A stretch of DNA of 64,000 nucleotides from an uncultured Coriobacteriales bacterium (GTDB taxonomy: Bacteria; Actinomycetota; Coriobacteriia; Coriobacteriales; Eggerthellaceae), in assembly GCA_946892075.1 (NCBI GenBank), contig CAMPNZ010000001.1:1257-65256 (forward strand), given 5' to 3'. A program made the position numbers and the translations under genes. The notes beneath the pieces were generated by a model, which saw only the letters and a program-made list of their open reading frames with translations, was not told the DNA's origin and did no database searches. This document shows positions 1 to 57,020 of the stretch, piece by piece (position 1 is the stretch's first letter; each line of letters begins with the position of its first letter).

Positions 1-177
1 CGCTCCTTTATGGGTTGGCCGCGTGTATACGATCCAAAACCAGGTGATATTGCAGTAAATAGCCATCACTGCGGTGTGTATATTGGTGGTGGACGTATGA
101 TTCATGCTGCTACTGAGCGTGTTGGTGTTATAGAGGGGCCTGTTCAAGCGGGTATGATATTTGTACGCCCGAACTAA
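1..177 (+). CDS. NlpC/P60-family peptidoglycan endopeptidase, C-terminal fragment (gene begins upstream of window)
   Basis: Open frame from window edge to TAA 175-177; tail ...HHCGVYIGGGRMIHAATERVGVIEGPVQ resembles the conserved His-containing C-terminus of NlpC/P60 peptidases. Confidence 0.5.
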   Translation, partial: RSFMGWPRVYDPKPGDIAVNSHHCGVYIGGGRMIHAATERVGVIEGPVQAGMIFVRPN

Positions 178-267
178 GACACAATGTGACGTACGCACAA
201 ACTCATATGTCGTACGCAACAAGCAGTAACTAACAAGCAGTAACTAACAAGCAGTAAGGGGCACATT

Positions 268-6501: not shown

Positions 6502-7779
6502 ATGTCAAGCAATGAAGTTATTGTTGTTACAGGAAATAATACGCTTACGGGCAGTGTTCAGGTATCAGGTGCAAAGAATTCTGCGCTCAAACTGATTGCC
6601 GCTTCTATTTTAGGGAACGGGAAAAGCGTTATCCGCAATGTTCCCGATATTTCAGATATTTCGGTAATGGTGCAGGTGTTAGCCGCCTTAGGCGCAAACG
6701 TTACGCGAAACGATCACTACTTAACTATCGACACGCACGCGGTTGATAAGTACGATACGCCCTACGAGCTGGTAAGTAAGATGCGCGCCAGCATTTCTAT
6801 TTTGGGCCCGTTGATTGCGCGTTTCGGGCGTGCTCACGTTGCCATGCCGGGCGGTTGTCAAATTGGTGCGCGTAAAATTGACATGCACCTCAAAGGCCTT
6901 GAAGCGCTTGGCGTGCATTTTAACGTTGAACACGGCTTTTTGAAAGCAACAACGCCCGATGGCTTGCATGGTGCCGAAATCATCCTTGATTTCCCCAGCG
7001 TGGGCGCAACCGAAAATCTGCTGATGGCAGCCGTGTGCGCCGATGGTATCACGCGCATCGAGAACGCCGCGCGCGAGCCTGAAATTGAAGATTTGGCGTC
7101 GATGCTGTGCAGTATGGGCGCGCACGTAAGCGGTGCGGGCACGTCAACTATCGAAGTGGAAGGCGTGCCGTTTGCGCGTTTGCACCCGTGCGAGCACACC
7201 ACCTGCGGCGATCGTATTGAAGCGGGCACGTTTTTGGCGGGCGGGGCGCTTACGGGCGGCCCTGTTACCGTTCACGGCGTAAACCCCAACTTTTTGCGCA
7301 TGGCGCTGATGAAGCTTGAAGCGATGGGTTGCACCATTGAAACCACGCTCGATTCAATTACCGTTTCTCGCAAAACGCCACTTCAGGCGCTTGATATTCA
7401 AACGCTGCCGCATCCAGGTTTTCCGACCGACTTGCAAGCGCAGTTCATGTTGTTGTGTGCGTGCGCGCAAGGTTCGTCGGTCATTACCGAAAATGTGTTT
7501 GAGAACAGGTTTATGTTTGGCGCTGAGCTGCGGCGCATGGGCGCGCGTATCACAATTGAAGACCATCACGCGCTGGTTGAGGGTAATTGCGTGTTGCAAG
7601 GCGCGCCGGTTACGTCCACCGATTTGCGTGCGGGCGCAGCTTTAGTGCTTGCGGGTATTGTTGCCGAAGGTCAAACGGTTGTGCACAAAATTGAGCATAT
7701 CGATCGCGGCTACGAGCATTTTACGGAAAAGTTGAACAGCTTGGGTGCGTGCGTGAAGCGCGTTCAGGTGTGCGACTAG
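6502..7779 (+). CDS. murA: UDP-N-acetylglucosamine 1-carboxyvinyltransferase
   Basis: full-length MurA/EPSP-fold pattern (GNNTLTGSVQVSGAKNSALKLIAAS...). Confidence 0.9.
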   Translation: MSSNEVIVVTGNNTLTGSVQVSGAKNSALKLIAASILGNGKSVIRNVPDISDISVMVQVLAALGANVTRNDHYLTIDTHAVDKYDTPYELVSKMRASISILGPLIARFGRAHVAMPGGCQIGARKIDMHLKGLEALGVHFNVEHGFLKATTPDGLHGAEIILDFPSVGATENLLMAAVCADGITRIENAAREPEIEDLASMLCSMGAHVSGAGTSTIEVEGVPFARLHPCEHTTCGDRIEAGTFLAGGALTGGPVTVHGVNPNFLRMALMKLEAMGCTIETTLDSITVSRKTPLQALDIQTLPHPGFPTDLQAQFMLLCACAQGSSVITENVFENRFMFGAELRRMGARITIEDHHALVEGNCVLQGAPVTSTDLRAGAALVLAGIVAEGQTVVHKIEHIDRGYEHFTEKLNSLGACVKRVQVCD

Positions 7780-9662: not shown

Positions 9663-9893
9663 ATGGTAGATAAAAATGAAGTTCAAACAGTGCTCGATTT
9701 AATTCGTCCCAGCCTGATTGCCGATGGCGGCGACGCCACCTTGCTTGATATTTCGGAAGACGGCGTTGTAACTGTGCAGCTTACGGGCGCGTGCAATGGT
9801 TGCCCGCTGTCTGCGATGACGCTTGCACATGGTATCGAGCGTATTTTGAAGGAACGCGTCGAAGGCGTCACGCGCGTTGTTGCTGCTGAATAA
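9663..9893 (+). CDS. NifU-like Fe-S cluster assembly domain protein (Nfu type)
   Basis: 76 aa with GACNGCP motif; GAGAGGAA SD. Confidence 0.8.
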   Translation: MVDKNEVQTVLDLIRPSLIADGGDATLLDISEDGVVTVQLTGACNGCPLSAMTLAHGIERILKERVEGVTRVVAAE

Positions 9894-10273
9894 ACGCTTG
9901 TTTAGCTGGAGAAATGCGGCGCGCTGCTGGGTGTGCCGCTTGTTGCTTTGCGCCTGTCGTGTGTGCCCGTCGTGCGCGCCTTGCGTGTTGCGCCTGTCGT
10001 GCGTGCCGCATACGATTACCTGCACATAGTTTTGCTCTTGGTTCATAAAAACCGCTTTTTGATTACCTATTACCGTTTCATGTGCGCATCTTTCGCGCGT
10101 TCATTGGTTCCATTCATTCCGCTTTGTAATATTTCTAACTACCTTGCTTCGTTCTGTTTCCGTTTCGCCTACCTTCCTTGCTGCGTTTTGTTTTCGCTTC
10201 CGTTCACTAAAGATAATCAACACAATGTTTAATATTTTTTCATGCTCCGTGTATCTTTTTCAGAAAAGAGCGG

Positions 10274-10279
10274 TAGAAT
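10274..10279 (+). promoter_or_regulatory. candidate -10 hexamer (TAGAAT) in the long AT-rich leader upstream of the TetR gene; nearby inverted motifs CTGCGCACAG (10311-10320) and TGTGCGCAG (10390-10398), plus GCATATGC palindrome
   Basis: sequence inspection only. Confidence 0.2.
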
Positions 10280-10431
10280 TATAGCTGTACAGCCGCGCAT
10301 ACGCATGCTTCTGCGCACAGCATACCTGCGCGTTCTACCGTTTCGTAAAACGCAAAAATCGTACATTGTAGTGCGCATATGCAAGAATGTGTGCGCAGCA
10401 ACTTTTCCTGACATAAGGAGCGTGCTTAATA

Positions 10432-11283
10432 ATGCCACACAACGCAAGCCCCGCCAGCAACACCAACGGCGCTGCAACCGAATCTTCCAACTCCTTTCCA
10501 GAAAACGACACTGTGTACAGGAGCGCGTCCGATCCTGTGAATGGCACCGCACCCGCAAGTAGCGACACAGCTGCGTCCGTGTCCGAGCCCACACCCGCTC
10601 CCACACCCGAACCCGGCACCGCGTCCGAGCCTGCGAACCACTCCCAGTACGCACTCGAAAGTGAGTTCCTTGCGGAAAGCGATGTTCCTCTTGATAGGCG
10701 CATCGCGAAATCGCGCGAGGCGCTGCGCTGCGCGTTCATCAGCCTTTTGCAAGAGCAGGGTTTTGACGCCATTACCATCAACGATTTATGCGCCACCGCT
10801 GGCATCAATCGAACGACGTTTTACAACCATTTCAAAGACAAAGATCAGCTGCTTTCGTATTTTGAGCAGGACGTTTTGAAGCGCCTTGAGGCGTTTCAGC
10901 CGCGCATTGCAAGCCTTGGCGTGGCCGAACTGTTCGCGTGTTCGTTAACCAAGCGTCCGCCCCGCGCGCTTATCGACCTGTTTGCCCTGTTGGGAAGCGA
11001 GGGCGATCTGCTGTATGCGCTGCTTGGCGACGGGGGCGACCCGGCATTTGCGCGCGCGTTAAACGAGGTGGTGTGCGTGAACATTGTGCGTTCCGTTCTG
11101 CACAAAAAATACCGCGAACACCCCAGCGTTTTCGTAGAGTATTACATTTCTTTTTATGCAACGGCGTATTTGGGCGTCATTACGCGCTGGATTTTAACGG
11201 GGCGGCGCGAAAGTGCCGAAGAAATGGCGCGCATCTGCATGCGACTTTTGTTCATTCGACCTGGTGAATCGATACGATTGTAA
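10432..11283 (+). CDS. TetR/AcrR-family transcriptional regulator with about 85-aa low-complexity N-terminal extension
   Basis: TetR HTH pattern (EQGFDAITINDLCATAGINRTTFYNHFKDKDQLL); start is uncertain, as the ATG at 10432 gives a Pro/Ala/Ser/Thr-rich N-terminus. Confidence 0.7.
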   Translation: MPHNASPASNTNGAATESSNSFPENDTVYRSASDPVNGTAPASSDTAASVSEPTPAPTPEPGTASEPANHSQYALESEFLAESDVPLDRRIAKSREALRCAFISLLQEQGFDAITINDLCATAGINRTTFYNHFKDKDQLLSYFEQDVLKRLEAFQPRIASLGVAELFACSLTKRPPRALIDLFALLGSEGDLLYALLGDGGDPAFARALNEVVCVNIVRSVLHKKYREHPSVFVEYYISFYATAYLGVITRWILTGRRESAEEMARICMRLLFIRPGESIRL

Positions 11284-11325
11284 GCGTTTCATTCACACGA
11301 GATGAAATCAGACGAGATGAATTGA

Positions 11326-14300
11326 ATGTACTACCTTGGAATTGACATAGGCTCCACGACGGTAAAGCTTGCGGTGTTAAACGAGCAGCATAAGCTGCTG
11401 TACGCAACCTACGAGCGCCACCATAGCGACGTGCGCGCCACGTTGACGCAGGTCATCGAAACGGCCGCCGCGCGTTTCCCCGGCAAAACCATGACCATTG
11501 CCATTACGGGCTCGGGTGGATTGCTGCTGGCAAACTGGCTGCACGTGACCTTTGTTCAGGAGGTTATTGCGTCCAAAGAAGCAGTTGAAGCGTTCATTCC
11601 GCAAACTGACGCCTGCATCGAGCTGGGCGGCGAAGACGCGAAGATTATCTTTTTCGACCAGAGCATCGAGCAGCGCATGAACGGACAATGCGCAGGTGGA
11701 ACGGGTGCGTTCATCGATCAAATGGCAAGTTTGCTTGACACTGACGCCACGGGCCTCAATGAGCTGGCGAAATCGTGCGAAACGCTGTATCCCATTGCGT
11801 CGCGCTGCGGCGTGTTCGCGAAAACCGACGTGCAGCCGCTGCTTAACGAAGGCGCACGTAAAGAAGACATTGCGGCGTCTATTTTTCAGGCGGTGGTAAC
11901 GCAAACCATCGCCGGTCTTGCGTGCGGCCGACCCATCAAAGGCTATGTGGCGTTTTTAGGCGGGCCTCTTCAATACTTGTCTGAACTGCGGAAACGCTTC
12001 ATTGTGACGCTGCAACTTAACGACGAACACACGCTTGTTCCCCCCAATGCGCATCTGTTTGTGGCGCAGGGTTGTGCGGTTGCGGGTTATACGTGCGACC
12101 AGCCGCATTTAGAGACGCTTGAAAGTTTGCTTGCGCGCTTGAAAACCTTGGGCGCGCAGCAGGGAAGTGAAGTGCAGCGCTTGCCTGCTTTGTTTGAAAC
12201 GCCTGATGATTATGCACGTTTCAAGCGTCGCCACGATGCGCAGTGCGTTCCGCGTGGCGATATTGCGCATGCGAAAGGTGCGCTGTTTTTGGGGCTTGAT
12301 GCTGGCTCAACCACGTTCAAGGTGGCGCTGATTGACGGCGACGCGCGCGTGTTGTGGTCGTTTTATAAAAGCAACAAAGGCGAAGTAATCGGCTCGGCGA
12401 AAGAGGCGTTGCACCAGTTGTATGCCGCAATTCCGCAAGGTTCGTTCATCGGGCACGCCACGGTAACAGGCTATGGCGAAGCGCTGTTGCTGCAAGCCTT
12501 GCGCGTCGATTCGGGCGAAATTGAAACCGTTGCGCATTTGCGCGGCGCACAAGAGCTGTTGCCGCAGGTAGATTTCATTTTGGACATCGGCGGGCAAGAC
12601 ATGAAGTGCCTGCGTATTCGCAACGGCGCGATTGACTCCATTATGTTGAACGAGGCCTGCTCATCGGGCTGTGGAAGCTTTATCGAAAGTTTTGCGGCCG
12701 GTTTGGGCATTCCGATTGCCAATTTTGCGCAGACTGCTATTCAGGCACGTCAGCCTGTGGATTTGGGCTCGCGTTGCACCGTGTTTATGAATTCGCGCGT
12801 GAAGCAAGCGCAAAAAGAAGGCGCAACCGTGGGCGATATTGCTGCCGGTTTAGCGCTTGCCGTTATTAAGAACGCCCTGTTCAAGGTCATAAAAATTCGC
12901 GATGCTCACGATGTGGGAACCTGCGGTATTGTGCAAGGCGGCACCTTTTTGAATGATGCGGTGCTGCGCGCGTTTGAACAGTTAGCGCAGGTAGATGCGT
13001 TTCGTCCCGACATGGCAGGCAATATGGGCGCCTATGGCGCGGCGCTTTTGGCGCGCGATAGGTACCGCAAGCAGTGCGAACGCGTTTCCGCGGGTGGTGG
13101 CGCGGAAGCGGGAACGGGCACGGGAGTGGTTGCGGTTGGCGCGCAACCAGCATCGCAACCAGCTGAAACGCAGCCCACCGCTGCGCCATTTTCTGCTCCT
13201 TCACCTGTACAAACGCCTGCAACCGCCACGGCGGCCTCCGCGGGTGGTGGCGTCCGTTCAACCATTGTAAGCGCCAAGGAAATTGACAGCATCAATCCAA
13301 CACATAAAACAACACGGTGTGGATTATGTTCCAATAACTGCCTTCTTACCATTAACTCGTTTGGACGCGATCCGCTTACCGGCAAAACGCGCCGCTTCAT
13401 TACGGGCAACCGATGCGAGCGCGGAGCTGGGCATTCAGGCAAAAATCATCGCAGCATTCCCAACGTGTTCGCGTACAAAAACAAGCGCCTGTTTTCCTAC
13501 AAACCGCTTGACGACGCCGATGCGCCCCGCGGCACCGTTGGCATTCCGCGTGCACTGAACATGTACGAAAACTACCCATTTTGGTTCACATTTTTTACGT
13601 CGTTGAAGTTTCGCGTAGAGCTTTCGGATAATTCGTCGAAGGAGCTATTTTCATCGGGAATTGAATCGATGCCTTCAGAATCGGTGTGTTATCCTGCGAA
13701 AATGGCGCATGGGCACGTGATGAATTTGCTGGCGCGCCACCCCGATTTCATTTGGATGCCGTGCTCGAAGTGGGAGCGCCAAGAAGATGCGGGCGCGGGC
13801 AATCACTATAATTGCCCCATTGTTGCCAGCTATTCCGAGGCCTTGCGCTTGAACATCGATCAGCTTAACAGCGCTGATACCGCGTTTTTGAACCCGTGGA
13901 TTCCCTACGACAAGAAAGACTATCTGAAAGAACGCCTGTTCATTGAGCTGTGCCAGCATAACGCCCAGGTGGTAGGCCGCCATGCTGCCCTGCCAACGCG
14001 CTCCGAGATAGATGCTGCCGTTGAGCGCGCCTGGGACGAGGATGAAGCGTTTAAGCGCGACATTCGCACGAAAGGCCAAGAAACGCTTATGTGGATGCAG
14101 CAAACGGGAACGCATGGCATTGTTTTGGCTGGTCGTCCGTATCATAACGACCCGGAAATCAACCACAGCATTCCCGAATTGCTCACATCGTTTGGCTTGG
14201 CGGTGCTGACGGAAGATTCAGTGGCTCATCTGGGCGTATTGGAGCGTCCCATCCGCCTTGTTGATCAGTGGATGTATCATACGCGTCTGTATGCGGCAGC

Positions 14301-15513
14301 AAAAGTGGTAACGCAGCGCAACGACCTAGACCTTATTCAGCTGAACAGTTTTGGATGCGGGCTTGATGCGCTTACCTGCGATCAAGTGCAAGAAATTTTG
14401 GAAGCTGCGGGGAAAGTGTACACGGTGCTGAAAATCGACGAAGTGTCGAATTTGGGTGCAGCGCGTATTCGTGTGCGCTCGCTACTGGCGGCTTTGCGCG
14501 ATAAACGGGAACGTGAGCAGGAGAAACATCACCGTGATCCGCGGGCACAAGAACGGCAAGGGGAACAGCGTGCGCAGGAAGGCGGCAGCCAGGAACGCGG
14601 CCCGCAGGAAGCCCGCCCACAGGAACTCAGCAGCCAGGAACTGCAAGGCTTACGGCACCAGCATGGCCAGCTTCGCACGCCAAGCGAAGCACGTTTGCAG
14701 ATTGTCGATTCGTTCATTCTTGTGCCTCCCAATGACATTGATGAGAACGTTCCCGCGCCAGGTGCAAGCTCCGCGCACGCTGTTTCTGCACGTGTAAACG
14801 CCGCATCAGCCGCCGCGGCGCCAGCCGTATCAGCCGCCTCGACATCATCCGCTCCCAACGCCGCATCAGCAGCCTCGACACCAGCCGCTCCCAACGCCGC
14901 ATCGGTGCTATCTTCCCAGGTGTCATGCTGCAAAGCTCCAGTTCACGCAAGCGAAAAAGCCGATCTGTACGTGCAAGACTTCTTCACTCAGCGCGCCTCG
15001 TCCTCAACCGCTTTCCAGCGCGTCCAATTCACGCAGCGCATGCGCGAGGAAGGCTGGACCATCCTTGCACCGCAGATGGCGCCCATCCATTTTGAAATTC
15101 TTGCCGAAGCGTTCCACCGTTTTGGTTACAACGTCGAGCTTTTGCCCAGCGTCGATCCGAAAGCAACCGAAATTGGCTTGAAATACGTAAACAACGACAT
15201 TTGCTACCCGTCAATTTTGGTAACGGGCCAGATTATGGAGGCCGTGCTGTCGGGGCGCTACGACACCAACAAACTTGCCGTGGTTATTTCGCAAACGGGC
15301 GGCGGATGCCGCGCCACGAACTACATTTCGCTTATTCGTAAAGCGCTTAAAGCCGCAGGTCTGGCGCACATCCCCGTGATTTCGCTGTCAACGGCGAAGC
15401 TGGGCGAAAGCAACCCCGGCTTCAAGCTAAGCGCTGCCATGCTTATGCAGGCCGTGTATGCGTTTTTGTATGGTGACCTTCTGATGCAGTGCCTGTACCG
15501 CACGCGCCCGTAG
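11326..15513 (+). CDS. CoA-substrate-specific enzyme activase (tandem BadF/BadG/BcrA/BcrD-type ATPase domains) fused to a 2-hydroxyacyl-CoA-dehydratase-like domain; N-terminal 1,395 codons, ending at an in-frame TAG
   Basis: two acetate/sugar-kinase-fold ATPase cores (MYYLGIDIGSTTVKLAV... and ALFLGLDAGSTTFKVALIDG...) followed by Cys-rich dehydratase-like region (CGLCSNNCLL...); same frame continues after TAG 15511-15513. Confidence 0.8.
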   Translation: MYYLGIDIGSTTVKLAVLNEQHKLLYATYERHHSDVRATLTQVIETAAARFPGKTMTIAITGSGGLLLANWLHVTFVQEVIASKEAVEAFIPQTDACIELGGEDAKIIFFDQSIEQRMNGQCAGGTGAFIDQMASLLDTDATGLNELAKSCETLYPIASRCGVFAKTDVQPLLNEGARKEDIAASIFQAVVTQTIAGLACGRPIKGYVAFLGGPLQYLSELRKRFIVTLQLNDEHTLVPPNAHLFVAQGCAVAGYTCDQPHLETLESLLARLKTLGAQQGSEVQRLPALFETPDDYARFKRRHDAQCVPRGDIAHAKGALFLGLDAGSTTFKVALIDGDARVLWSFYKSNKGEVIGSAKEALHQLYAAIPQGSFIGHATVTGYGEALLLQALRVDSGEIETVAHLRGAQELLPQVDFILDIGGQDMKCLRIRNGAIDSIMLNEACSSGCGSFIESFAAGLGIPIANFAQTAIQARQPVDLGSRCTVFMNSRVKQAQKEGATVGDIAAGLALAVIKNALFKVIKIRDAHDVGTCGIVQGGTFLNDAVLRAFEQLAQVDAFRPDMAGNMGAYGAALLARDRYRKQCERVSAGGGAEAGTGTGVVAVGAQPASQPAETQPTAAPFSAPSPVQTPATATAASAGGGVRSTIVSAKEIDSINPTHKTTRCGLCSNNCLLTINSFGRDPLTGKTRRFITGNRCERGAGHSGKNHRSIPNVFAYKNKRLFSYKPLDDADAPRGTVGIPRALNMYENYPFWFTFFTSLKFRVELSDNSSKELFSSGIESMPSESVCYPAKMAHGHVMNLLARHPDFIWMPCSKWERQEDAGAGNHYNCPIVASYSEALRLNIDQLNSADTAFLNPWIPYDKKDYLKERLFIELCQHNAQVVGRHAALPTRSEIDAAVERAWDEDEAFKRDIRTKGQETLMWMQQTGTHGIVLAGRPYHNDPEINHSIPELLTSFGLAVLTEDSVAHLGVLERPIRLVDQWMYHTRLYAAAKVVTQRNDLDLIQLNSFGCGLDALTCDQVQEILEAAGKVYTVLKIDEVSNLGAARIRVRSLLAALRDKREREQEKHHRDPRAQERQGEQRAQEGGSQERGPQEARPQELSSQELQGLRHQHGQLRTPSEARLQIVDSFILVPPNDIDENVPAPGASSAHAVSARVNAASAAAAPAVSAASTSSAPNAASAASTPAAPNAASVLSSQVSCCKAPVHASEKADLYVQDFFTQRASSSTAFQRVQFTQRMREEGWTILAPQMAPIHFEILAEAFHRFGYNVELLPSVDPKATEIGLKYVNNDICYPSILVTGQIMEAVLSGRYDTNKLAVVISQTGGGCRATNYISLIRKALKAAGLAHIPVISLSTAKLGESNPGFKLSAAMLMQAVYAFLYGDLLMQCLYRTRP

Positions 15514-15555
15514 GAAGCTGAAAAAGGGGCTTCCTACCAGCTGTTTCGTCGTTAC

Positions 15556-16272
15556 ATGGAAAGGTGCAAATCGCAGATGCGCGAAGGCTTGCGCTATGCG
15601 CATTTCGTGCGAACCTGCCGTTGCATCGTACGCGATTTTGATGCGCTGCCCCTGGTAAACGACCAGTCGAAGCCGCGCGTTGGCGTGGTTGGAGAAATTC
15701 TTGTGAAGTTTCACCCAACAGCAAACAACAATGTTGTGGATGTTATCGAAGCACAAGGCTGCGAGGCGCGCGTGCCAGGAATTGTTGAGTTTTTCCTGTT
15801 CGGAATTGCGGGCGCCATTTTCCAGCGCAAGCCACTTGGGCGTTCCCGCAAAGGCGAGCTGGGCTCTCGCGTGGCACTTGCGGTGTTGCAAGCTCTGCGT
15901 GCGCCTGTGAACAGGGCGCTTCACAAATCGCAGCGCTTCGAGCCGCCCGCTACCATTTACACGATGGGCTCGTATGCGTCCAACATTCTTAGCTTGTGCA
16001 ATTCGATGGGTGAGGGCTGGCTTTTAACTGCTGAAATGGTGGAACTTATCAAAAACGGCACGCCGAACATTATTTGCGCGCAGCCTTTCGCATGCTTGCC
16101 GAACCACGTTGTGGGCAAGGCGGTCATCAAACAGTTGCGCACAATGTATCCGCTGAGCAACATCGTTGCCATCGACTACGACCCCGGTTCCTCGGAAGTA
16201 AACCAGCTGAACCGCATAAAACTGATGATTTCGGTGGCAAAATCGAACGCGCGCAAAAAATCGCACCGCTAA
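15556..16272 (+). CDS. C-terminal continuation (238 codons) of the activase/dehydratase-like fusion, same frame as 11326..15513
   Basis: reading frame identical to the upstream part (both frame 1) and only a single TAG separates them. Confidence 0.7.
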   Translation: MERCKSQMREGLRYAHFVRTCRCIVRDFDALPLVNDQSKPRVGVVGEILVKFHPTANNNVVDVIEAQGCEARVPGIVEFFLFGIAGAIFQRKPLGRSRKGELGSRVALAVLQALRAPVNRALHKSQRFEPPATIYTMGSYASNILSLCNSMGEGWLLTAEMVELIKNGTPNIICAQPFACLPNHVVGKAVIKQLRTMYPLSNIVAIDYDPGSSEVNQLNRIKLMISVAKSNARKKSHR

Positions 16273-16396
16273 GCATGCGTTTTGCGTGGGCAAATGATGA
16301 TACAATACGTTTCGTTCACGTGGTTCAATGTTGTTCAGCGGCGCGTGCTTGCGGGGAACGCTGAACGGATAGTGAACGAATATCGAAAGGAATGGT

Positions 16397-16891
16397 ATGC
16401 ACTCCCTTGAACTTTTGCCTCGTAGCGGCGATATTATGCTGGCGCTCGGAATTGTCGTTGTTCTTGTTGCATTTATTGCGCTGCTGGTAATTTCGCGCAT
16501 TCGTAAGCGTTCAGCCGATCGCCTTAACGATAAATTCAGCCGCGAGGAGTTATTAAACGCGGCACATTATAAATCGCAAGCCTCGTATCAAGCCAGTTCA
16601 GAAGCTAGAAAAGTCTCTGGAATTGCCGACGGTCCGTCGCGTGACGACACGTCTTTATTGGGCGACGAATTGGGATTGAACGCTCGCCAGCCCGCTGCCC
16701 GCACGGTGCGACCGAACGCTCCGCGTACGGCGCCCGACCAGCTGCGTCGCGCATCGCAAAACGCACCGCGCACGGCACCGCAAGCACCTGCGCATCGGAC
16801 ATATGGAGCCGCTCATCAGGAACAACAGCAGCCGCCCGCAGCGCCGCGCAAGGGCGACTCCAAGCATCGAGGCCGCCATGCTCGACCCTAA
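16397..16891 (+). CDS. hypothetical membrane-anchored protein with Pro/Ala-rich tail
   Basis: GAAAGGAA SD 4 nt before the ATG; one TM helix (LALGIVVVLVAFIALLVI); no recognisable domain. Confidence 0.4.
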   Translation: MHSLELLPRSGDIMLALGIVVVLVAFIALLVISRIRKRSADRLNDKFSREELLNAAHYKSQASYQASSEARKVSGIADGPSRDDTSLLGDELGLNARQPAARTVRPNAPRTAPDQLRRASQNAPRTAPQAPAHRTYGAAHQEQQQPPAAPRKGDSKHRGRHARP

Positions 16892-17807
16892 CAGCGCATG
16901 TCATAACAGCGCAGGTCAGCAGGAAGATCATGGACGGCTTGTTATATGCCCAACGCCTATTGGAAACTTGCGTGATATAACGCTCCGTACGCTTGATGCT
17001 CTTGCAAACTGCGATTATGTATGTGCTGAAGACACACGTGTTACTGCTAAGTTACTGAACGCATATAATATCTCAAAGCCTCTTATTCGTATGGACGAAA
17101 ATACTATCAAGCGTAAGGCGTCAGGTGTTATTGCTGATATACAAGCTGGTAAACAGGTATGTTATTGTTCGGATGCGGGTATGCCAGGCGTTTCTGACCC
17201 TGGTATTGCGCTGCTTGCGCTTGCGTATGAACAGCATGTTTCAGTATGTGTGCTACCGGGAGCAAGCGCGTCCATTACGGCGTTCGTTGCCAGCGCAAGC
17301 TCGTTTTCAAACTTCTATTTTGTAGGCTTTCCTCCACGTAAAAAAAGCGCCTTTCGAGAACTTCTTAATGCGTTGACCAATTTACCTGCGGCTATTATCT
17401 TTTATGAAAGTCCGCATCGTTTGATTGCTACGTTAGAACTGCTGGCTGAGGTATTTCCGCAGCGTAAGCTGTGTGTTTTACGAGAGCTTACCAAAGTGCA
17501 TGAAGAAGTGTATCGCGATTCAACTACAAGCGCTCTGGAGTATTTTTCGGCGCGTGCCCAGCAGGGTGGTATTCGTGGCGAGCTGGTGGTTGTTCTTGAC
17601 GGTGCACGGCACGAGGTATCACAAGAAGAAGCACAACGTTCACGTGAAGATGTGCGTACCTATTTAGAACAGTTAGCTCATGAGGGAATGTCGATGCGTG
17701 ACGCGCGCAAAAAGGCCGCTGAGAGCACGGATTTGCCGAAAAATGAAATCTACAATCTTGCGCTTGAAGTGTACGGAAAAAAATCGTGTCAAACTGCAAA
17801 ATCATAG
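16878..17807 (+). CDS. rsmI: 16S rRNA (cytidine1402-2'-O)-methyltransferase
   Basis: GRLVICPTPIGNLRDITLRTLDAL...CAEDTRVTAKLL tetrapyrrole-methylase-fold signature; start chosen as the ATG 14 codons before this motif; 14-nt overlap with upstream ORF. Confidence 0.8.
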   Translation: MLDPNSACHNSAGQQEDHGRLVICPTPIGNLRDITLRTLDALANCDYVCAEDTRVTAKLLNAYNISKPLIRMDENTIKRKASGVIADIQAGKQVCYCSDAGMPGVSDPGIALLALAYEQHVSVCVLPGASASITAFVASASSFSNFYFVGFPPRKKSAFRELLNALTNLPAAIIFYESPHRLIATLELLAEVFPQRKLCVLRELTKVHEEVYRDSTTSALEYFSARAQQGGIRGELVVVLDGARHEVSQEEAQRSREDVRTYLEQLAHEGMSMRDARKKAAESTDLPKNEIYNLALEVYGKKSCQTAKS

Positions 17808-25268: not shown

Positions 25269-25489
25269 AAGGGGGTTACGCTTCTGCGTTCGCGTCCGCC
25301 GCGACACGCAAGCCGCGACACGCAGGCCGCGCACCCCGCAAGCCGCTGCCGCCCGTGCCCAGCACCGCACCCCGCGCCAGCACCAGCACCCGCTCCCGCA
25401 CCGCGCGCCCGGCACCGCGCGAGCGCTGCCATCTGACCAGCGGCACCATCCGTTCCCGCACAAGACCTTACGTGATGAAAGGGGTACTT

Positions 25490-26794
25490 ATGATAAACTT
25501 CATACAGCGCGATCGGTATTTAACCAGGTTAATCGACAAAAAAGAAAACGGCCTCATCAAGGTTATTACGGGCATAAGGCGCTGCGGGAAAAGTTTTCTT
25601 TTGTTTCATTTGTTTCGAGCATACCTTCTTTCGCACGGAATTTCTGAAGAACAAATTATCGCTGTTACACTTGACGATGATCGCTTTGTGCGATACCGCA
25701 ATCCAAGTGAATTATCGCGCTTCATACGTTCGCAAATTACCAGTTCAAAGATGTATTATGTCTTTATCGATGAAGTTCAATACGCAATTAGCAAAAATGA
25801 GCTTCAGCACCCCGATGAAATAAAGCTTTATAACGTGTTAAATGGACTGATGCGGCTTCATAATGTTGATATTTATGTTACGGGAAGCAATTCTAAGCTG
25901 CTTTCCACCGATGTAATGACAGCATTTAGAGGAAGGGGCGATTCTGTAGAACTGTATCCGTTGTCGTTTAAGGAGTATTTTGAGTTCTCGAAACAGGCCG
26001 CTCATCTGGACAAAACGCAAGCGTTTGAAGACTATGCGCTGTATGGCGGTATGCCTCAACTGCTAACATATACGCGCGATGAAGAAAAAGAGCTGTACCT
26101 TAAAAAGCTATTTTCAGAAGTGTATTTTAAGGATATCTGCGATCGTTATACCGTAAAATTGCCCGAGGTATTAGAAAGCCTTGCTGATGATTTATGTTCG
26201 TCGGTGGGTTCACTTACCAATGCAAAAAAAATTGCCAACACACTAGCAACGGTAAAGAATAATAAGGTGTCTGTAAGCACAATCGCAAAATATCTCACGT
26301 ATTTAACCGATTCATTTCTGTTTTCCGAGGCAAAGCGATACGACGTGAAAGGAAAGAAATATTTTGAGTATCCTGTAAAATATTATTGCACTGATATCGG
26401 CCTTCGCAATGCTCGGTTAAATTTTAGGCAGCAAGAAGAGCCGCACATTACAGAAAATATCCTCTATAACGAATTGATTGCGCGCGGATATTCTGTTGAC
26501 GTTGGTATTGTAGAATTGAACGAATCTGTGGGGGGTAATCCGCGAAAAAAGCAGTGCGAAATTGACTTCGTTGTTAATAGGGGCTCACGACGCTACTACA
26601 TTCAGTCTGCGTTATACCTTGATACCCCCGAAAAACTTGCTACCGAGTTACGTCCGCTAAAGCATACGAACGATTTTTTCAAGAAAATTATCGTATCAAA
26701 AACCCTTGCGCGACCCTGGTTTGACGAAGATGGCATTGTGCACATGGGTTTGTATGATTTTTTGCTGGATGAGAACTCACTTAACTGGTCGTGA
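25490..26794 (+). CDS. AAA+ ATPase of the AAA_14 + DUF4143 family (COG1373-type), low-GC
   Basis: AAAGGGG SD 5 nt before the ATG; Walker A GIRRCGKSFLL, Walker B YVFIDEVQY; about 435 aa typical of the family; GC about 42% against a ~57% background. Confidence 0.75.
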   Translation: MINFIQRDRYLTRLIDKKENGLIKVITGIRRCGKSFLLFHLFRAYLLSHGISEEQIIAVTLDDDRFVRYRNPSELSRFIRSQITSSKMYYVFIDEVQYAISKNELQHPDEIKLYNVLNGLMRLHNVDIYVTGSNSKLLSTDVMTAFRGRGDSVELYPLSFKEYFEFSKQAAHLDKTQAFEDYALYGGMPQLLTYTRDEEKELYLKKLFSEVYFKDICDRYTVKLPEVLESLADDLCSSVGSLTNAKKIANTLATVKNNKVSVSTIAKYLTYLTDSFLFSEAKRYDVKGKKYFEYPVKYYCTDIGLRNARLNFRQQEEPHITENILYNELIARGYSVDVGIVELNESVGGNPRKKQCEIDFVVNRGSRRYYIQSALYLDTPEKLATELRPLKHTNDFFKKIIVSKTLARPWFDEDGIVHMGLYDFLLDENSLNWS

Positions 26795-27761: not shown

Positions 27762-27837
27762 GGGGATGTAGCTCAGTTGGGAGAGCATCACGTTCGCAAC
27801 GTGGGGGTCGTGGGTTCGAATCCCATCATCTCCACCA
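27762..27837 (+). tRNA. tRNA-Ala (anticodon CGC)
   Basis: cloverleaf with G3:U70 pair in the acceptor stem, anticodon loop TTCGCAA, T-loop TTCGAAT, encoded CCA. Confidence 0.9.
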
Positions 27838-28816: not shown

Positions 28817-29090
28817 GCAACCGTTTCTAGATGTTGACACCACCCGAGTCGTCTGCACCCGAAGCCGCTATGGCAAGTAAAAATCAACAAGTCTTGAAAA
28901 GCCTGAGAACATAAATACAGACGCATGTCTTCACTATGCACCACCACGTACATTTCTTAGAACTCTATACCCGTTCCCCGTAACCACAAAATGCCAAATC
29001 GGCACCAATTCCGCGGTCGTGACCGTATTCCGCAGTTCAATATGGCACAATATAGCGCATAGAACCAAAAACCAGGGAGGGGGTTTGACA

Positions 29091-30929
29091 TTGGCTCAGC
29101 TTTCTATTGCGCCACAATCGCCTGATGATGCGCAGATTGCGCAATTTTTAGAAGACTTCGAGCGCCGCGTTCAAACAACTCCTCCAGGTATGTGCCCTGT
29201 TCAGCTGCAACTTAACCAGGTGCAAGCCGGTGCCGCGCAAACGTGCGGCAAATGTATTCCGTGTCGCGATGGATTGCCCCAGCTAGCAGCCTTGTTGCAC
29301 GATATTGTTGCGTGCACGGCTAGCCCCGAAACGCTTGATCAGGCGCGCGAACTGGCGCAGCTTATCAGCGAAACGTCCGATTGCGCTATTGGGTATCACA
29401 CAGCCGATGTGTTTCTGCAAAGCCTTCAAGCGCACGAAGCGGAGTTCAGTGCGCACGTTCAACAGCACGCTTGCCAGCCTACTATCGAGCAGAAAGTTCC
29501 GTGTGAGGCACTTTGTCCTGCTCATGTTGATGTTCCAGCATATATTGCGCTGGTGGCGCAGGGCGATAACGCCGCTGCGGTAAACATGGTTCGCAAAGAC
29601 AATCCGTTCCCGACAGCATGTGCGCTGGTCTGCGAGCATCCGTGCGAAATTCGCTGCAGAAGGCGGCTGATTGATGCGCCTCTTAATATCCGTGGCATAA
29701 AAAAGTACGCGTGCGATAATGCCCGCTGCGATACGGTGCCTACCCCCGTGCGCAATGTTGAAACGGGGCGAAAAATTGCCGTCATTGGTGGAGGTCCTAG
29801 TGGGATGACCTGCGCTTATTTTGCTTCGTTGATGGGGCATCGCGTAAGCGTGTTCGAAGCGCGCAAATCGCTGGGCGGCATGATGCGCTACGGCATTCCG
29901 GCATATCGCTTTCCGCGGGAACGTCTTGACGAGGATATTCGCGGAATCTTGAAGGTTGGCGGTATTGACGTTCACTATGAAACGCCTGTTGATACGCAAC
30001 TTTTGCATGAATTGGCGCGCGATTATGACGCGTTGTACGTTGCCATTGGCGCGCAAGCAGGAAAAACGCTTGATTTGCCTGGTGCGGATGCGCAGGGTGT
30101 ATTCTCGGCGGTGCAGGTGCTGGAACGCATTGGCGATGGAGATTATCCAAACTACCAGGGTAAACGTGTTGTTGTTATCGGTGGCGGTAATGTTGCGATG
30201 GACTGCGCGCGTACGGCGCTTCGTGCGAACGCGTCCGCGGTAACCGTGGTGTATCGTCGCAGGCGAGAAGACATGACCGCACTTCCTGAAGAAATTGACG
30301 CTGCTGCAGCGGAAGGTGTTGAGCTGTTGATGCTGGCGGCGCCTGTTGAAATTTCCGTTGATGAGCAGGGCGCATGCAAGGCGCTTATTGCGCAACCGCA
30401 GATGATTGGCCCTGTGAAGCGCGGCCGTCCGGCGCCCGTTACTGCGCTGCGTCCGCCGCTTACCATTCCAGCTGACGTTATTTTAATTGCTGTTGGGCAA
30501 GATATTGTAAGCGCGCCGTTTGAAGCGTTCGGCATGGCTGCAACGCGCGGTCGTTTTGCGGCAGACGAACATCTTTTGGCGCCAGGGCTTCGTAATGTGT
30601 TTGTGGGCGGCGACTGTCAAACGGGGCCTGCAACCATTATTCGCGCTATTGGTGCAGGTAAAGTGGCTGCTCGCAACATCGATCATGCGCTTGGGTACAG
30701 TCACACGCTGCCGTGCGACATTGTGGTGCCAACGCCCGCGCGCAACAATCGTACGGCAACGGGGCGCGTGAATGTGCCCGAGCGTTTGGTGCGCGACCGC
30801 AAGCACGATTTTCTTGAAGTTGAGCTTGAGAACACGCAGCAGGAAATTTTGCAGGAATGTTCGCGCTGTTTGCGCTGCGATTATTTTGGTTGTGGAACGC
30901 AAAAAGGGGGGAGGATTCGCTATGAATAA
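29091..30929 (+). CDS. fdhB: formate dehydrogenase beta-like subunit: NuoF-type 4Fe-4S/soluble-ligand domain fused to GltD-like NAD(P)H-dependent flavoprotein
   Basis: Cys clusters (CGKCIPCRDG; CEALCPAHVDVPAYI...CEHPCEIRC) then FAD/NAD(P) dinucleotide-binding motifs (IAVIGGGPSGMTCAY; VVVIGGGNVAMDCA); start ambiguous between GTG 29019 and TTG 29091 (AGGGAGG SD). Confidence 0.7.
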   Translation: MAQLSIAPQSPDDAQIAQFLEDFERRVQTTPPGMCPVQLQLNQVQAGAAQTCGKCIPCRDGLPQLAALLHDIVACTASPETLDQARELAQLISETSDCAIGYHTADVFLQSLQAHEAEFSAHVQQHACQPTIEQKVPCEALCPAHVDVPAYIALVAQGDNAAAVNMVRKDNPFPTACALVCEHPCEIRCRRRLIDAPLNIRGIKKYACDNARCDTVPTPVRNVETGRKIAVIGGGPSGMTCAYFASLMGHRVSVFEARKSLGGMMRYGIPAYRFPRERLDEDIRGILKVGGIDVHYETPVDTQLLHELARDYDALYVAIGAQAGKTLDLPGADAQGVFSAVQVLERIGDGDYPNYQGKRVVVIGGGNVAMDCARTALRANASAVTVVYRRRREDMTALPEEIDAAAAEGVELLMLAAPVEISVDEQGACKALIAQPQMIGPVKRGRPAPVTALRPPLTIPADVILIAVGQDIVSAPFEAFGMAATRGRFAADEHLLAPGLRNVFVGGDCQTGPATIIRAIGAGKVAARNIDHALGYSHTLPCDIVVPTPARNNRTATGRVNVPERLVRDRKHDFLEVELENTQQEILQECSRCLRCDYFGCGTQKGGRIRYE

Positions 30930-33900
30930 CACGTCCTCAAAGGCGAACGAGTTGCGTGCACGCATCTCGAGTGCGCTGTGCGATGGCGCTGGCGCTGGCG
31001 TTGATGCGTCTGGTGCGGATGGCATTTCCGCAGTTCAGGCGCAATGTGTGCGCGTAACAATTGACGGGCACGTGCTGGACGTTCCCTCTACAAGCACCAT
31101 TGTAGACGCCGCTGAACGCGCGGGAATTTCTATCCCCACCTTGTGTTATTTGAAGAAGTTGAATGCGATAGGCTCGTGTCGCATTTGTAGTGTTGAAGTT
31201 GCGTTTGTGCGCGACGATACTTCCACGAATGCGCAGCGTGAAGGCGCGCTCGCATCTGTTCCCCAGCCCGACGAGCTGTTTGCGCACGCGCAGCTTATGC
31301 CAGCGTGCAACACCAAAGTGCAAAACGGGATGCATATCCGCACGCAATCGGCGCGTTTACAGAGGTATCGCCAGCAGCTGTTGCGCTTGCTGTTGTGCAC
31401 GTATCGTCCGAACCCGCAGCGTTTTGCCCACGATTTTGTGCCGAATGAGTTTGAGCAACTGTGCATGCGCGAAGGCATCGACATTTCGTATTTGCTTCCT
31501 GAGCAGGCGGAACGTGGCGGCGCCAGTGCCAGCGGCCAGCCCGAACTTACCACCGAGCAGGCACAAAGCGCTCACGTGCTAAGAGGCCAGCCCGAACTTA
31601 CCACCAAGCAGGCTAAACCCGCCTCTGAACAGGAAGAACCCGCGAAACCGTTCCACGAACCCGCTTGCGTTCTTCCCTTTGAGCAGGACACACATCCCCA
31701 CGTGCACCACCAAGCTTCCGCAAAACGTCAGCCGTGCATTGACACATCACCGTTTCTGTCGTTCGACCCCAACATTTGTATTCGCTGTCAGCGCTGCGTT
31801 GCCGCATGTAACGAAGGCGCGGGCAATCACATTTTAGGAACGCAGCATCACGGCACACGCACGTCAATTTTGGCGCCGTTCGGAAGCGATTGGAACACAA
31901 ATACCTGCGAGAGCTGCGGTTGCTGTTCCGCGGCGTGCCCCACGGGCGCCATTTCTGAAAAAGCAACGCTGTCGTACGCGCACACAGAGCTCAAAAAAGT
32001 GCGTACTACCTGCCCACATTGTGGCGTTGGCTGCCAGTTCAATTTGATTGTGAAAAATGGTCGCATCGTCGATACCGAAGTGGTGTCAGGGCCTTCCAAC
32101 CAGGGCTTTTTATGCATTAAGGGCCGCTCGGCGTCGTTTAATTTTGTGCATTCTGCCGATCGTCTTTCGACGCCACTCATCAAAGACAAGGCCACCAACA
32201 CGTTTCGCAGTGCCACGTGGGATGAAGCTTTAAATTATGTAGCGGCGCGCCTTGGCAGTATTCGCGATGAGTACGGCGGCGATGCGATTGCGTCTTTTGC
32301 CTGTTCACGTTCCACAAACGAAGACGTGTATATGATGCAGAAAATGACGCGAACGGTGTTTCACACGAACAATGTCGACAGTTGCGCGCGCGTTTGACAC
32401 GCACCAACCGTTGCCGGTCTGGCAGCTACTCTTGGGTCGGGCGCAATGACAAATTCCATTCCCGATGTAACTGAACAAGCAGACGTCATTATGATGGTGG
32501 GAACGAATGCCGAGGAAGCGCACCCTGTACTGGGCATGCACATCCGCCGCGCCGTTGAGCGCGGTGCGCGTCTGATTGTTGTTGATCCGCGTACCATTCG
32601 CTTATCCGCGCGCGCCGACATTCATTTGAAGCTGCGACCTGGGACAAACGTTGCACTGTTCAATGGAATGACGAACATTCTTATTCAGCATAATTTGATT
32701 GACGAAGAATTTATTGCCCAGCGCACCGAAAATTTTGACGAACTGAAGCGTGTAGTTGCTGCGTATACGCCTGAACGCGTTGCCAAAATTTGTGGCATTG
32801 ACCAGCGCATGCTTGTTGAAGCTGCGCTGATGTATGGACGCGCGAACACCGCTGCCATTTTGTATTGCTTGGGCGTCACCGAGCACACTACGGGAACCGC
32901 TGGCGTGCTTTCGCTGTCGAATTTGGCCATGGCAGCAGGCAAAATTGGGCGTCCCGGCTGCGGCGTGAACCCCCTGCGCGGGCAAAATAACGTGCAGGGC
33001 GCATGCGATATGGGCGCCAACCCCGACAACTTCCCCGGCTATCAAAAGTTTACAACGCTGGGCGTGTTCGAGAAGTTCGAGAATGCGTGGGGCATGTCGC
33101 TGAATCGTACGGTGGGCCATTACGCAACCGACCAGTTCAACCGCGCACTTGATGGTTCGCTGAAGGCGATGTACATCATGGGAGAAGACCCAATGCGCAC
33201 CGACCCCGACATTGCGCACGTGATGAAAGCCCTGAAAGCGCTTGATTTTTTGGTTGTGCAAGAGCTGTTCATGACAGAAACGGCGAAGATGGCCGACGTG
33301 GTGCTGCCGGGCTGCAGTTACGCCGAAAAAGAGGGCACGTTTACGAACACCGAGCGCCGCATTCAGCGCGTGCGAGCTGCGGTTCCTGTGCATGAAGGCG
33401 CGCGGCTTGACACTGACATTTTCATTGACGTGATGAACCGCATGGGGTATCCGCAGCCGCATCTAACGGCAGCGGAAATTATGGATGAAGTGGCGCGCCT
33501 TGACCCTGCGTATGGGGGAGTTTCGCATGCGCGTCTTGACAGTTCTGAGTGTTATAACGATGGATTACAGTGGCCTGTTCCTACGGAAACTTCACCCTCA
33601 ACAGCAATTTTGCACGTTGGCGCCTTTACGCGTGGGCGTGGTTTGTTTAAGCCCGAGGAATATCGCGCACCTGCTGAAACGGCCGATGCGCGCTATCCGA
33701 TTATTATGATGACAGGGCGCGTGTTGCACCAATACAATGCGTGTGCGATGACGGCGCGCACGAAAGGCATCAATGAGCTGGGCGATTCGTCGTTTATCGA
33801 AATCAATACCAGCGATGCCAGCCAGTTGGGCATTGAAGATGGCGACCGTGTGCGCGTGTGTTCGCGACGTGGCTGCATTACGTCAAGCGCGCGTGTGTCC

Positions 33901-34086
33901 GACAAAACAACGCCCGGACATGCGTGGATGCCGTTTCACTATGAAGATGGCAACAGTAACTGGATTACGAACGGCGCTTTGGACGATCATGCGCGTGTGC
34001 CGGAATACAAGGTGTGCGCCATCAATGTTTCGCGCGTGCAGCGTTCGACGGCGCATGCTGGTGCTGGCGCTGGTGCGGGGTCGTAA
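30922..34086 (+). CDS. fdhA: selenocysteine-containing formate dehydrogenase alpha subunit (molybdopterin oxidoreductase); TGA at 32395-32397 read as Sec
   Basis: GGGGGAGG SD; N-terminal 2Fe-2S and 4Fe-4S ferredoxin motifs, MopB CPHCGVGCQF, then ...NNVDSCARV-TGA-HAPTVAGLAATLGSGAMTNS, which matches the FdhF Sec-site consensus (CARVUHGPSVAGL); both ORF-track pieces are in frame 1. Confidence 0.85.
32404..32435 (+). promoter_or_regulatory. SECIS-like hairpin starting 7 nt (outer stem) to 13 nt (6-bp inner stem) after the UGA
   Basis: GUUGCC-GGUCU-GGCAGC 6-bp stem with apical loop GGUCU, enclosed by CCAA/UUGG; position and loop resemble the E. coli fdhF SECIS. Confidence 0.6.
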
Positions 34087-40913: not shown

Positions 40914-40998
40914 TTTTACTTTACTGATATTTGGAGTTATAATATATCAGTTATATATTTAAGTAATGAATTTAGCAAAATGTAAGGTGGGGTTTATA

Positions 40999-46076: not shown

Positions 46077-46314
46077 ATGCGTCTTTCGACGGGTAGTTAT
46101 TTTCTCATAAGCGCGCTTGAAGTGCAAGCATAAATTCCAATTTTTGTAGCATAAGGCGCTGTTTCGCGATTGTGGAGCAGCAAAATAGCGCATTGCGTGG
46201 CTGAATATGGGTGCGGGTTTCTAGAGTTTCTGCAGGTGAAAGCTATATAGCGCTAGAACATTCCGCGCGTGCTGGGTTAGTTTGTTTTTCGCGTGAACGT
46301 GCCGCCGTGTTATT

Positions 46315-46378
46315 ACAGCCCAAGCACAGCCGCGTACCGGCTTTTTACAGCCCAAACACAACCGCGTACCGGCTTTTC
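46315..46378. repeat. 32-bp tandem repeat x2 (acagcccaa(g/a)cacа(g/a)ccgcgtaccggctttt) upstream of the tad locus
   Basis: direct reading. Confidence 0.6.
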
Positions 46379-46384
46379 ACCGCT

Positions 46385-46477
46385 CAACCACAGCCCCGTG
46401 CCGTGTTTCTGCATCCCACACACAGCCCCGTGCCGTGTTTCTGCATCCCACACACAGCCCCGTGCCGTGTTTTCGCC
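46385..46477. repeat. 32-bp tandem repeat x3 (cacacacagccccgtgccgtgtttctgcatcc) upstream of cpaB
   Basis: direct reading. Confidence 0.7.
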
Positions 46478-46580
46478 GTATTTTTGCAGCAAAATGGCGT
46501 GTTATTCGCGTGTTTTTGGCGTCTTTTTCGCGTATTTTGCCTGCCATACTTTCGCCAAGCACTTAAGGAAAGGACGCATC

Positions 46581-47417: not shown

Positions 47418-47450
47418 GTACGTTTGTGGTTCTTGATGAAAGGAACGTTT

Positions 47451-49544: not shown

Positions 49545-49545
49545 T

Positions 49546-51950: not shown

Positions 51951-51963
51951 GGGGGAATGGAAG

Positions 51964-52971: not shown

Positions 52972-53042
52972 GCGCTTGGTATAACAGCTTCACTGAAGCT
53001 TGTATGCAATAGAAATGGTCGTACTGATGAAAGGAGACAGAT

Positions 53043-53363: not shown

Positions 53364-53575
53364 TGCCGCACCACGCCCGCGCGCACAAAACAAATTCCGG
53401 ACAAGCAACACTTGAGTATGCGCTGGTCACAGGAGCTCTCTTAGCGGTGTTGCTTGCACTTGGCGCTTTGTTTCACGCCTGCAATGAAGGCGTATTGGTG
53501 CAATATGCGCTTGATCACGCGTCGCACCGTATGCACCTGGAAGACGACGGCACCTTAAGCGTGTTGTGCTATTAA
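53363..53575 (+). CDS. flp: Flp-family type IVb pilin (second copy)
   Basis: TAATG overlap with previous gene; 13-aa leader MPHHARAHKTNSG then QATLEYALVTGALLAVLLALGAL (classic Flp prepilin). Confidence 0.65.
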   Translation: MPHHARAHKTNSGQATLEYALVTGALLAVLLALGALFHACNEGVLVQYALDHASHRMHLEDDGTLSVLCY

Positions 53576-53594
53576 CAAGGAAAGGAACAGCTCA

Positions 53595-56410: not shown

Positions 56411-56416
56411 TGTGCG

Positions 56417-56998: not shown

Positions 56999-57020
56999 CG
57001 TACGGAAAAAGGAGAGAAAC

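Follow-up and report, generated by a model that had tools for sequence, protein, structure and literature searches.

Does a long gene that is cut by one in-frame stop codon still yield an enzyme, or has the enzyme been lost, be it in the organism or in the assembly? The question is raised by a locus on contig CAMPNZ010000001.1 (assembly GCA_946892075.1) from an uncultured Coriobacteriales bacterium, of which a stretch of 64,000 nucleotides (nt), referred to below as the window, was analysed. The locus carries a putative gene of the plasmalogen synthase (PlsA) type with a TAG at 15511-15513. It probably represents a recent loss-of-function nonsense allele of this plsA-type gene: to judge from the aligned relatives, a single C-to-G change at 15513 turned the tyrosine codon TAC into TAG. 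The reading frame is composed of the following parts.

11326..15510, forward strand: 5' part of the plsA-type gene, codons 1-1395 (reading frame and domain matches)
15511..15513, forward strand: in-frame TAG (codon 1396) in place of an invariant Tyr (reading frame and comparison with orthologs)
15514..16272, forward strand: rest of the gene in the same frame (252 codons and the TAA), which makes up the latter half of a C-terminal domain of 2-hydroxyacyl-CoA dehydratase (HAD)/double-cubane cluster protein (DCCP) type
15556..15558, forward strand: first possible restart codon, ATG, without a Shine-Dalgarno-like sequence upstream (TTCCTACCAGCTGTTTCGTCGTTAC)

The ATG at 11326 opens an open reading frame (ORF) of 1,395 codons (11326..15513), which ends at the TAG. 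Past this codon, the same frame stays open over 15514..16269 until the next stop, TAA 16270-16272, and the first ATG, GTG, or TTG is met 42 nt on, at 15556, giving 238 codons. A preliminary description, made from the letters alone, had placed the TAG in frame with ATG 11326, had let the frame run on for 238 codons from an ATG 42 nt further on, and had seen no Shine-Dalgarno sequence at this restart codon; all three statements hold, with correct coordinates. In contrast to ATG 15556, the starts of tsf, murA, metG, and other genes are preceded by AAAGGA, GATAGGTG, or AAGAGGTG.

The nearest relative, a 1.5-kb contig of the European Nucleotide Archive (L001; ERZ27230972 k141_14304) that encodes the protein P0001, matches the window with 98.07% identity over 1,400 bp and carries TAC where the TAG stands. 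Positions 1-82 of this contig are Illumina/Nextera adapter (CAAGCAGAAGACGGCATACGAGAT...CTGTCTCTTATACACATCT type) after poly-T, and the N-terminal 'MYKRQ' of P0001 is therefore adapter-derived. Tyrosine was found in 79 of the 79 loci from GTDB species representatives in which the motif could be located (TAC 66, TAT 13) and likewise in 80/80 loci from metagenome contigs (TAC 68, TAT 12), making 159 out of 159 orthologous loci in genomes and metagenomes of Eggerthellaceae and Collinsella (TAC 134, TAT 25). The surrounding motif reads LYR[TC]RPYE in every one of them, and the frame is continuous through the site. A stop at this position occurs in none of the 160 relatives (159 loci plus L001), and none of the 159 orthologs is split there. 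Thus, the Tyr codon (TAC or TAT) that had been predicted for the site is indeed present, and the orthologs naturally split at this position that would have spoken for two separate genes were not encountered: the orthologs are single open frames, and the known plsA-plsR split precedes the C-terminal domain.

The sequence behind the TAG is undecayed. The remainder 15514..16272 is 99% identical to P0001, and the window differs from L001 downstream of the TAG by seven synonymous codon changes and one Ala/Ser codon. A further relative, P0002 (94% identical), shares the Ala with the window, so that the replacement maps to the L001 lineage; because of this common Ala, no amino-acid change is left in the 252 orphaned codons of the window. 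The event would, on this comparison, be very recent, or it is not biological.

The nature of the encoded protein follows from domain matches and, for its last part, from a predicted fold. The full-length protein, with the TAG read through, is divided as follows.

about amino acids (aa) 3-260, forward strand: activase ATPase domain 1 (Pfam BcrAD_BadFG)
12289-13053, forward strand: activase domain 2, aa 322-576 (Pfam BcrAD_BadFG)
13534-14223, forward strand: DUF2229 or 'Red1', aa 737-966 (Pfam PF09989)
14512-14895, forward strand: species-specific low-complexity linker, about aa 1063-1190 (alignment, tandem repeats)
14908..16245, forward strand: C-terminal 'Red2' (PlsR-equivalent) domain, about aa 1195-1640 (AlphaFold2 model and Foldseek)

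Pfam recognises two BcrAD_BadFG (PF01869) stretches (1.9e-51), and the NCBIfam model TIGR00241 for the acyl-CoA dehydratase activase domain is matched in two stretches as well (2.3e-66). After the activase domains, DUF2229 (PF09989) is matched over the full profile (1.9e-82). The Pfam match to HGD-D (PF06050; aa 1311-1361) is weak, and the final ~420 residues are without a Pfam match of their own. Since searches of the PDB by sequence, with a single sequence and then with a profile, gave no meaningful match for the C-terminal domain, a fold search was needed. The domain was modelled with AlphaFold2 on the 99%-identical P0001 together with 53 homologs (alignment A1), resulting in a predicted local distance difference test score (pLDDT) of 83.2 and a predicted template modelling score (pTM) of 0.85. 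Foldseek aligned this model from end to end with DCCP (7yyl/6eno), 2-hydroxyisocaproyl-CoA dehydratase (its beta subunit, 3o3m_B), and BzdNO (8s02), with E values from 6e-7 to 1e-4 over about 440 columns and a sequence identity of only 10-15%. According to the model, the C-terminal domain is one subunit fold of the HAD/benzoyl-CoA reductase (BCR)/DCCP type that is interrupted mid-way by the TAG. The domains that had been described, double BadF/BcrA-type activases fused to a dehydratase-like part, are found as such by Pfam and NCBIfam. The family is also, as had been stated, normally encoded as one ORF, with complete orthologs forming single open frames of roughly 1,520-1,770 codons.

When aligned over their full length, the read-through product and the single-ORF orthologs of Gordonibacter, Adlercreutzia, Senegalimassilia, Slackia, Parvibacter, Anaerotardibacter, and Collinsella are collinear throughout, and only low-complexity linkers set the former apart. 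The linker at aa 1063-1190 is simply variable and repeat-rich. It contains two in-frame tandem repeats, one at 14575-14641 (15-nt period, 4.5 copies, Q-E-rich peptide) and one at 14824-14903 (36-nt period, 2.2 copies, A/S/P-rich peptide), which make it longer than, and unlike, the linkers of the orthologs. Compensated frameshifts in this linker were considered and rejected, as the other frames hold stops and resemble the orthologs no better.

The order activase-activase-DUF2229-HAD-type matches the published layout of the anaerobic plasmalogen synthase. PlsA is described as two PF01869 domains plus PF09989, and PlsR as a second reduction domain; the synthase is encoded by two genes in Clostridium perfringens and by one in Enterococcus faecalis, Lactococcus, and Bifidobacterium longum subsp. 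suis (4,920 bp), and where it is split by nature, the break falls after the DUF2229 domain and before the second reduction domain (PMC12838417; bioRxiv 10.64898/2026.06.23.733905). Orthologs of pls occur in Eggerthellales and Coriobacteriales according to a review (PMC9702350), and Ger is a homolog of related architecture that forms alkyl ethers (PMC13159169). By its predicted domains, the gene belongs, as a single ORF, to the PlsA/PlsR (plasmalogen synthase)/Ger family. The coding capacity for all four plasmalogen synthase modules is interrupted by the TAG at codon 1396, i.e. the gene is a disrupted member.

What the interruption would mean for the protein can be read from its place in the modelled fold. 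The replaced Tyr is residue 198 of the model (Y198) at the end of a helix spanning residues 172-198, where the local pLDDT exceeds 94, and it is nearly invariant in alignment A1. The domain has six invariant or nearly invariant cysteines, two of them before the stop (C95 of NNDIC and C130 of GGGCR) and four after it (C281, C360, C386, and C392; P0001 positions). Proteins of the HAD/BCR/DCCP family bind clusters through such cysteines. In the window protein, the natural plsA-plsR boundary falls on the linker (about aa 1063-1190), roughly 200 residues ahead of the TAG. The TAG would thus end translation inside the C-terminal domain, and because half of this domain and four of the six cluster-type cysteines are lost, the model makes it very unlikely that the truncated 1,395-aa product is active. 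The enzyme would most likely be dead, and the strain most likely makes no product.

The TAG lies in a palindromic sequence, which bears both on the origin of the change and on any recoding.

15510..15537, no strand assigned: perfect 9-bp inverted repeat containing the TAG, arms 15510-15518 (GTAGGAAGC) and 15529-15537 (GCTTCCTAC), 10-nt spacer

A 6-bp stem-loop immediately 3' of the TAG had been noticed in the preliminary description. The stem-loop is present, but it contains the TAG instead of following it, and the 6-bp stem is only part of the 9-bp repeat. A bare 6-bp hairpin was dismissed as a signal, since such hairpins with a loop of 3-12 nt are too common (180 positions in the window, ~1 per 356 nt). 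As RNA, the structure gains one G.U pair and reaches a folding free energy of -18.8 kcal/mol (z = -2.0; 6 of 200 shuffled sequences fold as well), compared with -12.2 kcal/mol for the TAC allele; DNA parameters give -8.4 (TAG) versus -3.9 (TAC) kcal/mol. The arms of the L001 allele, GTACGAAGC and GCTTCCTAC, pair at 8/9 positions with a C.C mismatch, whereas those of the window allele, GTAGGAAGC and GCTTCCTAC, pair at 9/9. The new G at 15513 is the complement of the opposite arm and makes the 8/9 quasi-palindrome perfect, a point that had escaped the preliminary description. With an inverted repeat counted from 9 bp upwards at a spacer of 3-20 nt, limits that were set after the case had been seen, such a repeat is created by 41 of the 14,841 substitutions possible in the reconstructed ancestral gene (0.28%) and by 1 of the 545 nonsense substitutions, the C-to-G change at 15513 being the only one. 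At the other 26 differences between the window and L001, the repeats measure 2-6 bp in either allele. When inverted repeats running through the third base of the Tyr codon were measured in the 159 orthologs, the longest came to at most 5 bp in 158 and to 7 bp in one. Quasi-palindrome template-switch mutagenesis is established in Escherichia coli (PMC7202029). The change probably arose in the same manner, by a template switch at the pre-existing 8/9 quasi-palindrome in which the opposite arm was copied; the evidence for such an origin is suggestive.

Of the three explanations offered at the outset, the nonsense mutation is favoured, a sequencing error takes second place, and read-through is the least supported. 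An artefact of sequencing, assembly, or library preparation, with TAC in the organism and the G at 15513 being a consensus error or an in-vitro template-switch or end-repair product, is considered rather unlikely, albeit a serious competitor. Only a single base is concerned, the undecayed downstream codons would fit an event of zero age, and no second assembly of the genome was found to confirm the base; when metagenome contigs were searched for the exact 45 nt around the site, with N allowed at 15513, nothing matched. Inverted repeats are, moreover, known sites of in-vitro polymerase template switching. Against an artefact, the other ~40 genes in the window look intact, with neither premature stops nor frameshifts, which speaks against an error-rich assembly; the only further in-frame stop is taken as a bona fide selenocysteine (Sec) codon. 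The site has no Ns and no long homopolymer, and C-to-G transversions are an uncommon class of consensus error. A systematic GTAC-to-GTAG miscall at a methylation motif was rejected, as GTAC is not depleted (162 observed versus 143 expected). A palindrome-templated C-to-G is also unlike a random base-call error, and the palindrome-perfecting nature of the change suggests a templated event, in vivo or in vitro, rather than such an error.

The remaining explanations would rescue the enzyme. Leaky or programmed read-through, in which a near-cognate tRNA-Tyr, tRNA-Gln, or a suppressor decodes the TAG with the aid of the hairpin and yields enough full-length enzyme, is highly improbable. A near-cognate tRNA can insert Tyr at UAG, which would give back the wild-type protein, the hairpin is a stable one for RNA (-18.8 kcal/mol), and the sequence past the TAG is undecayed. 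Nevertheless, basal read-through of UAG in bacteria is typically 1% or less, the stop is absent in 160/160 relatives, and the hairpin is absent from the 159 orthologs and weaker in the TAC allele. By ribosome geometry, the 5' arm of the hairpin, which holds the stop, must melt when the TAG is in the A site, and known stimulators lie downstream of the stop. TAG is also a normal terminator here: the stops of the 37 ORFs taken as genes are TAG in 16, TAA in 16, and TGA in 5, with ends backed by Pfam matches. An Rfam scan of the whole window found only two tRNAs (Ala and Val) and no element at the site, and neither pyl genes nor a suppressor or pyrrolysine (Pyl) tRNA occur within the 64 kb. The same facts bear on a reading of the TAG as Pyl or as a reassigned codon, the chance of which is close to negligible; its sole support is that the codon is TAG, and the orthologs encode Tyr, not Lys or Pyl. 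More doubtful than read-through is a functional two-piece enzyme, for which translation would terminate at the TAG and reinitiate at ATG 15556, followed by assembly of the 1,395-aa and 238-aa products. PlsA and PlsR are indeed separate genes in C. perfringens (PMC12838417), the restart ATG is near, and the downstream part is intact. However, the cut lies ~200 residues beyond the natural split and inside one subunit-type fold (bioRxiv 10.64898/2026.06.23.733905; PMC12838417), fifteen residues including the invariant Tyr would be lost, the ATG has no Shine-Dalgarno sequence, and no ortholog is split at this site (159 loci). Programmed recoding and a functional split are thus poorly supported. 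A putative formate dehydrogenase (FDH) gene of the window with TGA at 32395-32397 resembles the plsA-type gene in having an in-frame stop in a long conserved redox-enzyme gene and a hairpin nearby; unlike the FDH TGA, the plsA TAG is not a conserved stop and is not accompanied by a conserved element.

Several points weigh against the nonsense allele as set out here. The case is known from the assembly sequence, in which a real mutation, a consensus or base-call error, and an in-vitro template switch are inseparable. The same-species comparison consists of one 1.5-kb contig (L001); protein-guided scans of genome and metagenome contigs gave no same-species locus (best 71-73% aa identity), and in the protein collection there were no exact matches to the 1,395-aa product, the 238-aa product, or MurA. 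The palindrome argument is post hoc and as such suggestive. Membership in PlsA rests on architecture, synteny, and one review statement, and NCBIfam and Pfam contain no model specific for PlsA; the choice of PlsA rather than Ger is drawn from taxonomy, and the product may be an sn-1 vinyl ether, as with PlsA, or an alkyl ether, as with Ger.

Other assemblies also show broken genes of this type. In a Coriobacteriia plsA-type gene (L144; R07__coassemble_143), an independent in-frame TGA stands at ~6597-6599 (...ENICK*SYREC...), 26 codons downstream of the same Tyr, and three further loci (L019, L117, and L134) have frame changes within a plsA-type gene. Sporadic disruption of this 5-kb gene in other assemblies may reflect mutations or assembly errors. 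A further proposal is that the 8/9 quasi-palindrome, which encodes P-Y-E-A-E-K-G-A-S-Y, is a natural template-switch hotspot that gives rise to recurrent TAC-to-TAG plasmalogen-null variants in gut populations of this Eggerthellaceae-like species. We regard it as quite unlikely; if true, it would be a sequence-encoded one-way off switch for ether-lipid synthesis, open to selection. In a weaker variant of this unlikely proposal, the truncated product, with two activase domains, DUF2229, and half of Red2, would keep partial Ger-like activity.

The plsA-type gene is preceded by a regulatory gene.

10432..11283, forward strand: TetR-family regulator gene (Pfam TetR_N 3.7e-11, TetR_C_8 6.3e-12)

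The plsA-type gene thus lies directly downstream of a TetR regulator, as had been described. The coordinates mark the longest ORF; with the helix-turn-helix motif at aa 104-142, the actual start probably lies downstream of 10432. Of 80 related genome loci (Eggerthellaceae and Collinsella; L006-L081), 57 have a TetR ortholog immediately upstream in the same orientation. This pairing of tetR and plsA in strict anaerobes would qualify a published claim that confines the regulator to facultative anaerobes. In E. faecalis, the TetR gene EF1326 comes right before pls (EF1327; PMC9702350). A direct repeat at 11293-11321 (TCACACGAGATGAAA, then TCAGACGAGATGAAT) fills the 42 nt that separate the TetR stop from the plsA start and may be a regulatory or ribosome-binding feature; a TGA immediately precedes ATG 11326. 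Just past the gene stop, the window has a 20-nt segment (TCAGCGGCGCGTGCTTGCGG; 16335-16354) that the 98%-identical L001 lacks. A promoter and terminator scan of 9800-17000 gave counts at or below chance.

Elsewhere in the window, an in-frame TGA at 32395-32397 joins two ORFs (30772-34086, forward strand). The ORF before the TGA comprises Fer2_4, Fer4, Molybdop_Fe4S4, and the start of Molybdopterin (profile positions 1-80), the one after it the rest of Molybdopterin (106-352) and Molydop_binding. This TGA looks like the Sec codon of an FDH alpha subunit, and we take it to fall where the FDH family carries its Sec codon. A hairpin, GUUGCC-GGUCU-GGCAGC (32410-32415/32421-32426; loop GGUCU), starts 13 nt after the TGA and presumably resembles the selenocysteine insertion sequence (SECIS) of E. 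coli fdhF. The ORF upstream of it (29019-30929; NADH_4Fe-4S and Pyr_redox_2) looks like a partner subunit. Two paralogous ATPase genes with AAA_14 and DUF4143 (25355-26794 and 34367-35707) lie in or beside patches of lower GC content (0.43-0.47 versus about 0.53), one of them just before tRNA-Ala 27762-27837, and may be mobile or accessory DNA. A surface protein of 1,286 aa with leucine-rich repeats, FIVAR, an extended coiled coil, and three CWB2 domains for cell-wall binding is encoded at 40966-44826 in a low-GC (0.445) stretch with strong AT skew. A Tad/Flp-type pilus locus (46293-58900) comprises RcpC/CpaB, a ParA-like TadZ, a T2SSE ATPase, two T2SSF, and TadE, together with several ORFs without a family match, one of them of 755 aa.

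For annotation, the locus should be entered as a single plsA-type gene that is disrupted, either a pseudogene or a candidate for a base error; it should be labelled neither as two separate genes nor as a case of recoding. Beyond this it matters little: it is a nonsense allele or a base error of an ordinary sort, in a gene family that is known, and the one unusual detail is the palindrome-perfecting origin. Should the mutation be real, the strain is predicted to be without the plasmalogen or ether lipids of its relatives and would serve as a natural knockout for the role of these lipids in gut Coriobacteriia. The C-to-G change would then also be a tidy natural example of quasi-palindrome template-switch mutagenesis. 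It resembles the E. coli lacZ quasi-palindrome reporters and the thyA hotspot (Ripley model), where an imperfect repeat is made perfect from the opposite arm (PMC7202029); unlike in these systems, the mechanism is deduced from one natural allele.

Among known enzymes, the protein is most readily compared with PlsA-PlsR (C. perfringens CPE1194/CPE1195, Q8XL48/Q8XL47; E. faecalis EF1327/Q835P9), with which it shares two BcrAD_BadFG domains, DUF2229, and a second HAD-type domain. Like plsA of B. longum subsp. suis, it would be encoded by a single ORF of about 1,650 codons (PMC12838417), and like EF1327 behind EF1326, it has a TetR gene immediately upstream (PMC9702350). Unlike PlsA-PlsR, the window copy is interrupted by a TAG inside the PlsR-equivalent domain; unlike in the natural plsA-plsR operon, the stop falls ~200 residues inside Red2, and ATG 15556 has no Shine-Dalgarno sequence. 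The 'modified PlsA' Ger (glycerol ester reductase; Thermotoga maritima Tmari_0479, Desulfatibacillum alkenivorans SHJ90043) is of the same superfamily, has the same B-B-D core of two PF01869 domains and PF09989, forms a saturated alkyl ether product, and has a C-terminal part of small alternating D/H segments (PMC13159169). The C-terminal part of the window protein gives one weak HGD-D match, and Pfam cannot separate PlsA from Ger here. In the fold of this part, the protein resembles 2-hydroxyacyl-CoA dehydratases, class I benzoyl-CoA reductases, and DCCP (HadBC 3o3m, BzdNO 8s02, 6eno/7yyl), and its activase domains, comparable to the ATP-dependent activators of these proteins, match TIGR00241. 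Unlike in HadBC, BzdNO, and DCCP, activator and catalytic modules form one fused chain, and a membrane lipid ester is presumably the substrate.

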